A stretch of 64,000 nt of DNA from Escherichia coli (GTDB lineage Bacteria > Pseudomonadota > Gammaproteobacteria > Enterobacterales > Enterobacteriaceae). The notes beneath the pieces were generated by a model. It was given only the letters and a program-made list of their open reading frames with translations. It made no database searches and had not been told where the DNA came from. Every line of letters starts with the position of its first letter. Position 1 is the stretch's first letter. The stretch lies in NCBI RefSeq assembly GCF_051903065.1, contig NZ_CP178438.1. One strand, written 5' to 3'. Shown here piece after piece: positions 55,580 to 56,710 of this stretch. The position numbers and the translations under genes were made by a program.

Positions 55580-56710
55580 CTATTTCTCATAAATCCACTT
55601 AACTTTTTTTACTGATTCATCCCAGAGAACCACTTTATCAGTAAAAAATGAATTATATAGATTGACGAGTTTTTCTGTTTCAGTTATTCCCAATGCATTA
55701 TGTATCAGTTGTAGATATGCTTTTATCCAGATTTCTTTACCCTCCCTCCACTTATCTATAAAAATTTCCAACTTACTTAATCGTTGATTTATAAAAAATG
55801 AATCAATATCATGAAAAAACTCAACAAGAAAACAGCACGAGATAATCTCAACAAAAAACAAATTCTCCTTAAAAGCATTATAAAACTTTATCAACACATA
55901 ACGAAAAACACCTCCTGTTAACCTTTCCTGTTCATAAAACAACAAGCCAAAAATAGGCGGAAATCTTTTAACCACACCACTTTTAATCCAGTAAGGATGA
56001 TGATTAGTCTTTACTGGCAGTGAATAAAAGAACAATTCGGTTTCTCTTTTCCCACCACAAACAGACAAAACAGTCTTATAAAGACTTTTTGAATCACTAT
56101 ATCCTGACACTCCAGACGAATTAGCAGGGTATTTTCTTTTTACTTTTTGCCTTAATGGAGCTGGAAGAATAATAAAACGGGATGGTAGATAACAATCGCT
56201 TTCAGAAGACCTGCATTCGCACACATGAAGATTTATATTTACATCCGGACAATTCAAAAACCACACAGAATAATTATCGCTCCGTTTGCAATATGAAACC
56301 CATGAATAAATTGCATAAAGTTCAGAAAGTACATCTAACTCTGCTTTTGATTTAAATGTGATACCGTTTCTTCGAATTCTCGTTTCCAGCGTTCTCCATG
56401 CCGGAGTTTTCAGTATCTCACGAACTTTTTTATTAAGTTCAACCAGCGATGGTCCCTGCTCCTGTTTATGTTTCTTCCTGCTGTTAATGATTTCTCTTTC
56501 TTTTACTAATTTTTTCTTACTTTTGGGTCCTTTTATCTTTCTTGGCAATGCTTCATTTAATCTGTGAACAGGATTTTGCTCTCTTCTTTTTTTGAGCTCA
56601 CAAAACCTCTCATAATGTTTTCTGCACAGTCTTTTCTCCACTGCCATTTTTACTGAGAAAACCTGATTGTTACAATTTTTTCTGACGCATTTGTTTTTAC
56701 GTCCGGTCAT
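55580..56710 (-). CDS. Hypothetical protein, AT-rich, basic Cys-containing N-terminus
   Basis: 376-aa ORF, divergent from the downstream GTPase gene; no recognised family. Confidence 0.45.
   Translation of the reverse strand: MTGRKNKCVRKNCNNQVFSVKMAVEKRLCRKHYERFCELKKRREQNPVHRLNEALPRKIKGPKSKKKLVKEREIINSRKKHKQEQGPSLVELNKKVREILKTPAWRTLETRIRRNGITFKSKAELDVLSELYAIYSWVSYCKRSDNYSVWFLNCPDVNINLHVCECRSSESDCYLPSRFIILPAPLRQKVKRKYPANSSGVSGYSDSKSLYKTVLSVCGGKRETELFFYSLPVKTNHHPYWIKSGVVKRFPPIFGLLFYEQERLTGGVFRYVLIKFYNAFKENLFFVEIISCCFLVEFFHDIDSFFINQRLSKLEIFIDKWREGKEIWIKAYLQLIHNALGITETEKLVNLYNSFFTDKVVLWDESVKKVKWIYEK

Follow-up and report, generated by a model that had tools for sequence, protein, structure and literature searches.

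The stretch of DNA analysed here, referred to as the window, comprises 64,000 nucleotides (nt) of the Escherichia coli contig NZ_CP178438.1 (assembly GCF_051903065.1), and the subject of this report is an AT-rich open reading frame (ORF) for a protein of 376 amino acids (aa), which lies divergent from a YfjP/YeeP-type GTPase gene. This ORF is a genuine gene under purifying selection, beyond a chance ORF. Judged from sequence similarity and synteny, it is one allele class of an undescribed, hyperdivergent and fast-diverging family, found here in the Enterobacteriaceae only, and this family recurs in the backbone of tRNA-integrated mobile islands of the CP4-57-like kind, so that the ORF is more than a lone piece of foreign DNA. 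Its alleles replace one another between near-constant flanks, next to a divergent junction whose core is conserved. The protein, for which a zinc finger and a separate core are predicted, is tentatively regarded as a regulator or sensor of the island life cycle, a role that we hold to be possible and short of probable.

Coding status and composition

The gene under study is the following feature.

55580..56710, minus strand: 376-aa ORF, ATG start, stop codon included; nucleotide-identical to the gene of WP_047928958.1 ('hypothetical protein') of strain W5-6

That it is a real gene follows from the ratio of nonsynonymous to synonymous substitution rates (dN/dS), from near-universal full-length alignment among its carriers, and from relatives in the same synteny in other genera. 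By the Nei-Gojobori method, dN/dS was 0.19-0.32 for six allele pairs, compared with 0.12-0.19 for the GTPase used as control, and thus selection on the ORF is slightly more relaxed than on the neighbouring GTPase. DNA of the 376 type is present in 462 of 5,426 complete E. coli genomes, chromosomal in every case, and at least 80% of the gene is aligned in 458 of these 462 carriers. Disrupted copies among the inspected loci amount to one frameshift (CH4811) and one IS1 insertion (E29). The earlier note on this DNA had allowed that the ORF might prove non-coding or frameshifted in close relatives; what was found instead is purifying selection together with these two disruptions. The copy in CFT073 (locus HGG68_RS20890) is annotated WP_001339473.1 (hypothetical protein), and a Shine-Dalgarno-like AGGAGATGAGAGG is located directly upstream of the start of the ORF.

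The same note had described the ORF as AT-rich, divergent from the second GTPase of the window and encoding a basic, Cys-containing N-terminus, and this description was borne out. The guanine-plus-cytosine (GC) content is 33.7% (28.6% at third codon positions) versus 48.5% for the window and 48-53% for neighbouring genes, and the compositional boundary at the ORF/GTPase junction is sharp. The protein (44.6 kDa, isoelectric point (pI) 9.73) contains 12.0% Lys, 9.3% Leu, 6.4% Ile and 6.1% Phe. Its residues 1-100, with a pI of 10.6 and 32 Lys and Arg residues, include Cys8, Cys13, Cys29, Cys37 and His32.

A hyperdivergent family

Full-length relatives of the 376-aa protein occur at 80%, 38%, 35%, ~31%, 26-29% and ~19-20% identity in E. 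coli, Salmonella, Klebsiella, Citrobacter, Atlantibacter and Enterobacter, and those of Klebsiella, Salmonella, Enterobacter and Atlantibacter, at 19-38% identity, are found in the same synteny. The superfamily, with alleles of 376, 383, 407, 421 and 465 aa, is held together by phmmer and profile matches of 1e-36 to 1e-244, and its shared motifs are the N-terminal finger, KTPAWR/SREWLN, I-L-P-x-x-[LI][KR], SLYK, P-L-F/L and (I/L)YNS(C/F)F. In every host genus, family alleles of 34-43% GC are located beside GTPases of 53-59% GC.

A fixed place in the island backbone

Wherever a locus offers enough sequence, in E. coli, Klebsiella, Atlantibacter, Salmonella and Enterobacter, one common arrangement is found, even where protein identity falls to ~19%. 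On the GTPase side, reading away, the order is GTPase, (WYL regulator), DUF932, antirestriction, RadC/JAB, DUF987, CbeA and CbtA; on the opposite side, and in the opposite reading direction, are the family ORF, an AlpA-type excisionase/regulator and a Gp2/YfjJ-type HUH initiator. The family gene accordingly reads in the same direction as AlpA and Gp2/YfjJ and divergently from the GTPase (or WYL) operon. The loci of Klebsiella, Atlantibacter and Enterobacter show the order ORF-AlpA-Gp2, with the family gene directly heading the AlpA-Rep module. Around the ORF, the window contains these features.

56895..57779, plus strand: YfjP/YeeP-type GTPase, the divergent partner (MMR_HSR1, 2.6e-15)
57982..58662, plus strand: regulator with helix-turn-helix (HTH) and WYL domains (YfjR-like), 3' of the GTPase, 98-100% identical across allele types
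54066..55579, no strand: AT-rich (38% GC) 1.5-kb stretch without annotated gene, between the ORF and the Gp2-type gene
53334..54065, minus strand: Gp2/YfjJ-type HUH replication-initiator-like gene, co-directional with the ORF (PF11726, 6e-37)

The intergenic region separating the ORF from the divergent GTPase measures 184 bp, within ~93-184 bp across the five genera. The partner GTPase is 52% identical to its Klebsiella counterpart and 39% identical to the window's other GTPase. The metagenomic locus L015 (940-3112) has no GTPase; there, the family member P0024 and a WYL gene diverge from each other, with 334 bp between them.

As the sole tRNA of the window is leuX (tRNA-Leu CAA, 18845-18929), with an integrase ORF next to it, the 376-aa ORF lies in the leuX island array, whose boundary is marked by leuX and the integrase (18845-20381; locus L021). 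Strain W5-6 is identical to the window over 55400-56900, and its leuX array carries a dndBCDE/dptFGH phosphorothioation system. Past the integrase, the window and W5-6 differ in a comparison of ORF patterns rather than of aligned arrays, and the window includes a second GTPase-containing module. The 376-type gene of CFT073, like that of one further strain, resides in an island adjoining yicL. Recognisable cargo beyond Gp2 consists of type I restriction-modification (R-M) genes in Enterobacter, and of Mrr-type and Dnd genes in the strain that matches the queried part of the window. In the window itself, a gene for an Mrr_cat-type restriction endonuclease (52128-53006, minus strand) adjoins the Gp2-type gene and is followed by remnants of an IS256-family transposase (51850-52113); both look like cargo at the edge of the backbone module.

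In one recent paper, such islands are described as uncharacterised, prophage-like, tRNA-integrated mobile genetic elements that carry an integrase, an excisionase, a HUH Rep protein and a 'moron' module of RadC/ArdB and CbtA/CbeA (PMC12458937). A satellite-like nature has been proposed for them, and that paper, like one on related Pseudomonas islands, names no regulator (PMC12458937; PMC12595487).

The 1.5-kb gap beside the ORF contains short direct repeats, such as AAAATACGTGTATA at 54991 and 55027 and a 29-nt pair at 54950 and 55010, and in Salmonella a gene-free gap of 1.6 kb occupies the same place (L012 9399-10996). The gap diverges faster than the ORF, with 81% versus 96.5% identity to CFT073. 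It was rejected as a conserved non-coding element, since it has no Rfam match, is unlike the Salmonella and Klebsiella gaps and diverges faster than the ORF. Decayed genes might account for it, or an origin at which the Rep protein acts. In some of the 407-type islands introduced below (L016 3059-3589, L019 3058-3588), the gap contains an opposite-strand ORF of 176 aa with a weak match to NikA, a relaxosome accessory protein (E 0.011).

Exchange of alleles in one slot

The same GTPase, at no less than 90% nucleotide identity, is present in 1,871 genomes, and among the matches listed homology mostly ends ~76 bp upstream of its start codon; in the window, this 76-bp junction spans 56819-56894. 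The slot beyond is occupied in those islands by a 'hypothetical protein' of 407 or 316 aa. The 407-aa protein matches the 376-aa protein over its full length (hhalign probability 99.5%, E 7e-23, 16-18% identity) and carries the same finger (CRNKKC...RLCDDHYKLW) together with the C-terminal IYNSCF motif; the finger module is also found in the Enterobacter allele. The match of the 316-aa protein is weaker (88%, E 3e-6), covers the central part, query residues 97-319, and lacks the finger. Across the allele types, the flanks are near-constant in amino-acid identity (Gp2 85-95%, GTPase 93-98%, WYL 98-100%). Nucleotide homology to islands of the 407 and 316 types ends at 56818-56820 and at 55167, which delimits the exchanged unit to approximately 55168-56818.

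55168..56818, no strand: HYPERDIVERGENT allelic cassette of leader, ORF and ~410 bp of 3' flank, bounded by the homology break points versus 407- and 316-type islands

Among the 5,426 complete E. coli genomes, the 407 type is present in 976 and the 316 type with its diverged relatives in 741, and these sets overlap with the 462 of the 376 type. Jointly, the three allele classes occur in a large fraction of complete E. coli genomes, and all are labelled 'hypothetical'. The slot was also considered as a hotspot for unrelated cargo; for the 407-aa occupant, clearly homologous if remote, this idea was rejected, and the similarity of the 316-aa occupant is weaker. The uncharacterised 407-aa proteins (WP_001107219 and WP_001107221) share with the window protein the finger, the (I/L)YNS(C/F)F motif, the slot, the orientation and the junction core; the 316-aa protein (WP_000157734), likewise uncharacterised, differs from it in its weaker match and missing finger. 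These relatives add breadth to the family, not function. In one island (L018 4236-5971), the 316-aa gene overlaps by 4 nt, convergently, a hypothetical gene of 262 aa with weak C-terminal matches to ribbon-helix-helix/RepB-type regulators (E ~0.09). For the 316-allele class, DNA binding might be supplied in trans.

The divergent junction

The junction between ORF and GTPase holds a compact set of candidate regulatory elements.

56831..56836, minus strand: -10-like TAATAT in the conserved core GGTAATAT(A/G)G, kept in all loci examined
56850..56868, no strand: palindrome CCGGATCACACTAATCCGG (CCGG-N11-CCGG), directly after the -10-like element of the GTPase-strand promoter
56822..56849, plus strand: promoter-like pair TTCACG-16 nt-GATAAA for the GTPase strand, read from sequence, overlapping TAATAT and below the threshold of the scan tool
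56711..56830, minus strand: putative 5' leader (120 nt), specific to the 376 type, with a 20-codon upstream ORF (uORF), as read from the sequence

On the ORF strand, the order in all compared loci is palindrome, 13-14 nt, GGTAATAT(A/G)G, and this core is kept in the examined loci of E. coli (376, 407 and 316 alleles), Salmonella, Klebsiella, Atlantibacter and Enterobacter as well as in L015. As L015 is without the GTPase, the core goes with the ORF family; this locus keeps the GGTAATATAGACGTGAAA core, preceded by a different palindrome (ACCATAAATGGT). The palindrome varies as CCGG-N11-CCGG in Salmonella, CCGG-N11-CCGT in Klebsiella and GCGG-N11-CCGG in Enterobacter. Its centre is 23 nt upstream of TAATAT and ~35 nt upstream of the putative start of the ORF transcript (~ -35), and the promoter-like pair on the other strand places it at the start of the predicted GTPase transcript. 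Homology between alleles breaks right after the shared GGTAATATGG..GTGAAAA core, and this is roughly the expected position of the transcription start. The junction is therefore best described, as far as sequence allows, as two candidate backbone promoters that overlap back to back and share an operator-like palindrome. A repeated operator was looked for and rejected, as the palindrome occurs once in the window.

The uORF of the 376-type leader, MEYEVSFSERELMTYCGFRR (56718-56780, minus strand), has its stop 4 nt before the main ATG. In the allele of 80% identity (L010), a 1-nt indel appears to shift the uORF frame, and by the same reading the upstream ORF still ends overlapping the ATG. Translational coupling is possible, as is coincidence.

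Protein layout and predicted structure

Three segments are predicted for the 376-aa protein, listed here with their coding coordinates.

56600..56689, minus strand: N-terminal Cys/His module, residues 8-37, C8-x4-C13-x15-C29-x2-H32-x4-C37 (KCVRKNC...KRLCRKHYERFC), conserved across the family; putative zinc finger of treble-clef-like layout
56447..56599, minus strand: basic helix and Lys/Arg-rich disordered linker, residues 38-88 (pI 10.6 and 32 Lys and Arg in residues 1-100; predicted local distance difference test score (pLDDT) <50 at residues 58-84)
55583..56446, minus strand: core domain, residues 89-376, with a mixed alpha/beta middle, a helical bundle (252-354) and a terminal beta-hairpin

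The structure prediction is confident and multi-domain. The N-terminus is the best-conserved segment of the superfamily, and within the Cys3-His ligand set of the module, C-x4-C-x15-C-x2-H, the residues C8, C29 and H32 are invariant or near-invariant across the family alignments and C13 is nearly so. In the predicted model, the module (pLDDT ~89-92) has beta-bridges at residues 7 and 16, and the C29/H32 pair starts a helix at 30-45. This secondary structure is compatible with a treble-clef finger, for which a knuckle in a beta-hairpin and a ligand pair at the N-terminus of a helix would be expected, and the module is accordingly treated as a putative zinc finger that would bind zinc. In the core, W105, R114, Y135, P183, Y211, P252, L256, R263, E288, Y352-N353 and F356 are conserved superfamily-wide. 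In the Salmonella members P0033 and P0069 (465-468 aa; P0033 = L012 8001-9398), the Cys/His module is present twice in tandem, and their core is closer to that of the E. coli 407-aa allele than to that of the 376-aa allele.

Searches for known relatives

No family was found for the 376-aa protein at E<=0.1 in Pfam, NCBIfam or PADLOC, and in PHROGs the best match was phrog_32134 (E=0.1, function unknown), so that no family was assigned; the 407-aa and 316-aa relatives are likewise without any curated family. As the PADLOC release used (PADLOC-DB 2.0.0) is dated 2023, defence systems described later could be missed. An exhaustive phmmer search of 1.84 billion representatives returned 20 matches, comprising family members or fragments and one PAS/histidine-kinase protein, the latter being unrelated and looking like a chance match. 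Nothing meaningful emerged from sequence searches of the PDB with the family profile or the double-finger N-terminus, and comparison of the predicted model with PDB and viral structures gave no significant fold match. Family searches and fold comparison revealed neither an HTH family nor an HTH repressor fold in the 376-aa protein, nor did they reveal an enzymatic or toxin-like motif or a fold match to defence effectors. The literature, searched by protein accession and K-12 gene names, yielded nothing on the 376-aa gene, and neither expression nor ChIP data turned up for its locus.

Several candidate relationships were rejected. The WRC domain (PF08879) scored 17.2 bits against a gathering score of 28.6 (E 0.004) in P0033 only, with the window protein unmatched, and separate searches of the N- and C-terminal parts produced sub-threshold WRC and DUF5522 matches, again in P0033 only. 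A phage or plasmid origin was set aside, as the phage collection gave no match and the plasmid collection one, to a non-mobilizable record. Kinship with AbpA/YfjL, YfjH and YfjM of K-12 was rejected. The 376-aa protein is thus a sequence and structural orphan outside its own family, and given that no sequence or structural relative is detectable, its fold may be a new one.

The 339-aa ORF upstream of the first GTPase is no member of the family either. The dissimilarity that the earlier note had seen between the two ORFs holds (hhalign probability 0.1-0.2%), and the claim that they occupy the same relative position is loose at most, since the 339-aa ORF (25625..26644, plus strand) is co-directional with its GTPase (26715..27581, plus strand) and not divergent from it. 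The 339-aa ORF is itself AT-rich (36.8% GC versus 57.2% for its GTPase) and without a Pfam family, and it may be another orphan beside a YeeP-type GTPase.

Comparison with known systems

The Stl master repressors of the Staphylococcus aureus pathogenicity island (SaPI) phage satellites are HTH proteins encoded at a divergent junction and are highly divergent between related islands. The window protein resembles them in its position at the divergent junction of a chromosomal island, in its variability, and in the DNA-binding N-terminus and variable sensor logic proposed for it here. However, it is without a detectable HTH, in contrast to Stl, and shares with it neither sequence nor fold similarity, such that helper sensing and repression would be transferred to it by analogy. 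The Ogr/Delta proteins of phages P2 and P4 are small Cys-based zinc-finger activators; Ogr has ~72 aa and the pattern C-x2-C-x22-C-x4-C, and P4 Delta is a tandem duplication. The likeness consists in the Cys-based finger and in the duplication in Delta, which may be compared with the doubled finger of Salmonella P0033, whereas there is no sequence match, and the window protein has an extra core of ~290 residues. The plant C3H zinc finger WRC, with spacing C-x9-C-x10-C-x2-H, has a similar Cys3-His pattern that ends in C-x2-H and is followed by basic residues, and the segment RLCEKHY accounts for the sub-threshold match; WRC differs in its spacing, in being a eukaryotic family and in that score, confined to P0033.

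In PIME1, an AlpA/LuxR-type pair of divergently oriented regulators beside alpA is required, both together, for excision and replication (10.64898/2026.01.12.698999). The authors speculate that the regulator pair senses the helper (10.64898/2026.01.12.698999). The likeness is an island regulatory region with a second regulator beside AlpA. PIME1, however, belongs to another element family (RepA, TraJ, TrbJ/L), its regulator has a LuxR-type HTH and no homology to the window protein, and the window-type gene is co-directional with AlpA. Because these are elements of a different family, the comparison is an analogy only. AbpAB and RnlAB of the K-12 island CP4-57 likewise lie between a YfjJ-type gene and a YfjP-type GTPase; their sequences are unrelated to the family, and as the alpA-yfjI-yfjJ module is inverted there, the K-12 slot is not strictly equivalent.

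Regulator, effector or accessory factor

From the layout and the junction, we infer that the 376-aa protein binds DNA and has a regulatory or sensing role. On the proposed mechanism, the family gene would be transcribed from a backbone promoter whose -10 element is the conserved TAATAT, and this promoter would overlap that of the GTPase operon, back to back, around the CCGG-N11-CCGG palindrome. Nucleic acid, in the simplest case the junction DNA, would be bound by the finger together with the basic linker, and a signal, such as one from a helper phage or plasmid or from the host, would be sensed by the fast-evolving core. If so, islands that are otherwise near-identical would exchange whole alleles under selection for differing signal specificities, as may be compared with SaPI Stl, and in the uninduced state the gene may be silenced by H-NS. 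A regulator had been suggested in the earlier note, and the Cys/His module, the basic linker, the fixed place at the divergent junction and the position ahead of AlpA/Rep in three genera are compatible with this suggestion, whereas the persistence of a finger-less allele is not readily so. In its strongest form, the proposal is that the family is the specificity-determining master regulator or sensor of CP4-57-like islands, a new-fold zinc-finger protein produced from a conserved backbone switch, whose alleles (376, 407, 316 and others) would answer different helper phage, plasmid or host signals and set excision, replication and the GTPase/antirestriction/CbtA module; taken as a whole, this is unlikely.

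A number of observations weigh against the regulatory reading. The -35 element of the ORF promoter is poor (ACTAAT) and a consensus promoter scan called neither junction promoter, so the promoter assignment stays provisional; moreover, the HTH-WYL protein is an equally good candidate binder of the palindrome. K-12 CP4-57 is without any family member, and hence not every island of this kind depends on the family. In 380 genomes, 80% or more of the 316-aa allele can be aligned, and because an allele with no finger persists in this way, the conserved function may lie in the core and not in DNA binding. The finger matches no curated family, and a protein of 376 aa without a detectable effector-type domain is bigger than one would expect of a simple repressor. 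Defence and anti-defence genes, too, typically show hyperdivergent alleles within conserved flanks.

This last point leads to the chief rival, which we regard as doubtful, namely that the protein is an arms-race effector, either a single-gene anti-phage factor of the abortive-infection type or an anti-defence factor expressed with the antirestriction/RadC module, and that counter-evolution of phage or host drives allele replacement. The hyperdivergent alleles between conserved flanks and the AT-richness kept in all hosts are explained equally well by such an effector as by a regulator, and the missing finger of the 316-aa allele is less of a difficulty for an effector than for a regulator that binds DNA. 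The adjoining module encodes ArdB-type antirestriction and RadC/JAB proteins, and the yfjJ-yfjP interval of K-12 CP4-57 holds the anti-phage genes abpAB and rnlAB, yet the latter comparison is positional only because alpA-yfjI-yfjJ is inverted there relative to the window island. This class of island is a known vehicle of defence systems (PMC12458937). Against an effector, neither a match in the 2023 PADLOC release, nor an enzymatic or toxin-like motif, nor a defence-protein fold was detected; moreover, homologs and not unrelated systems fill the slot, and its place ahead of AlpA and Rep in five genera is the behaviour of backbone, not of cargo. It is quite unlikely that the protein is instead an accessory factor for replication or transfer that acts with the Gp2/YfjJ-type HUH initiator, binding an origin in the 1.5-kb gap or coating and delivering single-stranded DNA. 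Such a factor would fit the shared strand and module with the Gp2-type gene in all genera, the very basic N-terminal third, the long gene-free gaps (with short direct repeats in E. coli, and of 1.6 kb in Salmonella) and the weak NikA-like small ORF in the gap of some 407-type islands. However, only a short gap, with AlpA in between, separates the two genes in Klebsiella and Enterobacter, the E. coli gap evolves faster than the ORF (81% versus 96.5% identity to CFT073), and family, PDB and fold searches revealed no similarity to known replication or relaxosome proteins; furthermore, a specific partner of Rep would not be expected to be swapped while the Rep gene itself stays the same, as it does here.

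Slightly more improbable still is a functional partnership with the divergent YfjP-type GTPase, as its effector, activator or nucleic-acid-tethering adaptor. The divergent pairing with this GTPase subtype recurs in five genera, and the E. coli GTPase is closer to that of Klebsiella (52%) than to the window's other GTPase (39%), which has no adjoining family member. The pairing is nevertheless not obligatory, in that L015 has a WYL gene instead and yfjP of K-12 is without a family member, and the GTPase stays 93-98% identical while its partner is exchanged for an allele of ~17% identity, which argues against a co-evolving protein interface. That the ORF is an H-NS-silenced foreign gene without current role for island or host, that is, selfish or decaying DNA, is very improbable. 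The low GC content (33.7%), the sharp boundary at the junction, the H-NS paralogue ~5 kb away and the lack of a known function or family would all suit such DNA, but purifying selection contradicts it, as do the 458 of 462 carriers in which 80% or more of the gene can be aligned, the finding of only two disruptions in the inspected loci, the cross-genus conservation at 19-38% identity with invariant motifs and fixed synteny, and the confident multi-domain prediction. Of the foreign, H-NS-silenced gene supposed by the earlier note, the silencing part is plausible, in view of the family-wide AT-richness (34-43% GC) and of an H-NS paralogue in the island, whereas the foreign part gives way to a recurrent backbone allele. 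Silencing is compatible with any functional reading, as silencing and function are not mutually exclusive. The paralogue is a 146-aa ORF (49931-50371, minus strand) in an AT-rich patch of the same island, ~5 kb from the 376-aa ORF, with the H-NS-type C-terminal DNA-binding motif YWSGQGRRP; its counterpart in W5-6 is annotated 'H-NS family' and called shorter (116 aa).

Significance

Few mobile elements are as common in E. coli and its relatives as the tRNA-integrated islands of the CP4-57-like type, which carry Dnd, BREX, R-M, toxin-antitoxin and virulence cargo. Recent papers still call these islands uncharacterised and describe no inducer (PMC12458937; PMC12595487). On present evidence, the 376-aa family is not a new kind of system. 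If the arms-race explanation is true, the family would be a new and widespread defence or anti-defence gene. What is new here is a recurrent hypervariable backbone gene on a conserved divergent junction, which may offer a handle on how these islands switch.

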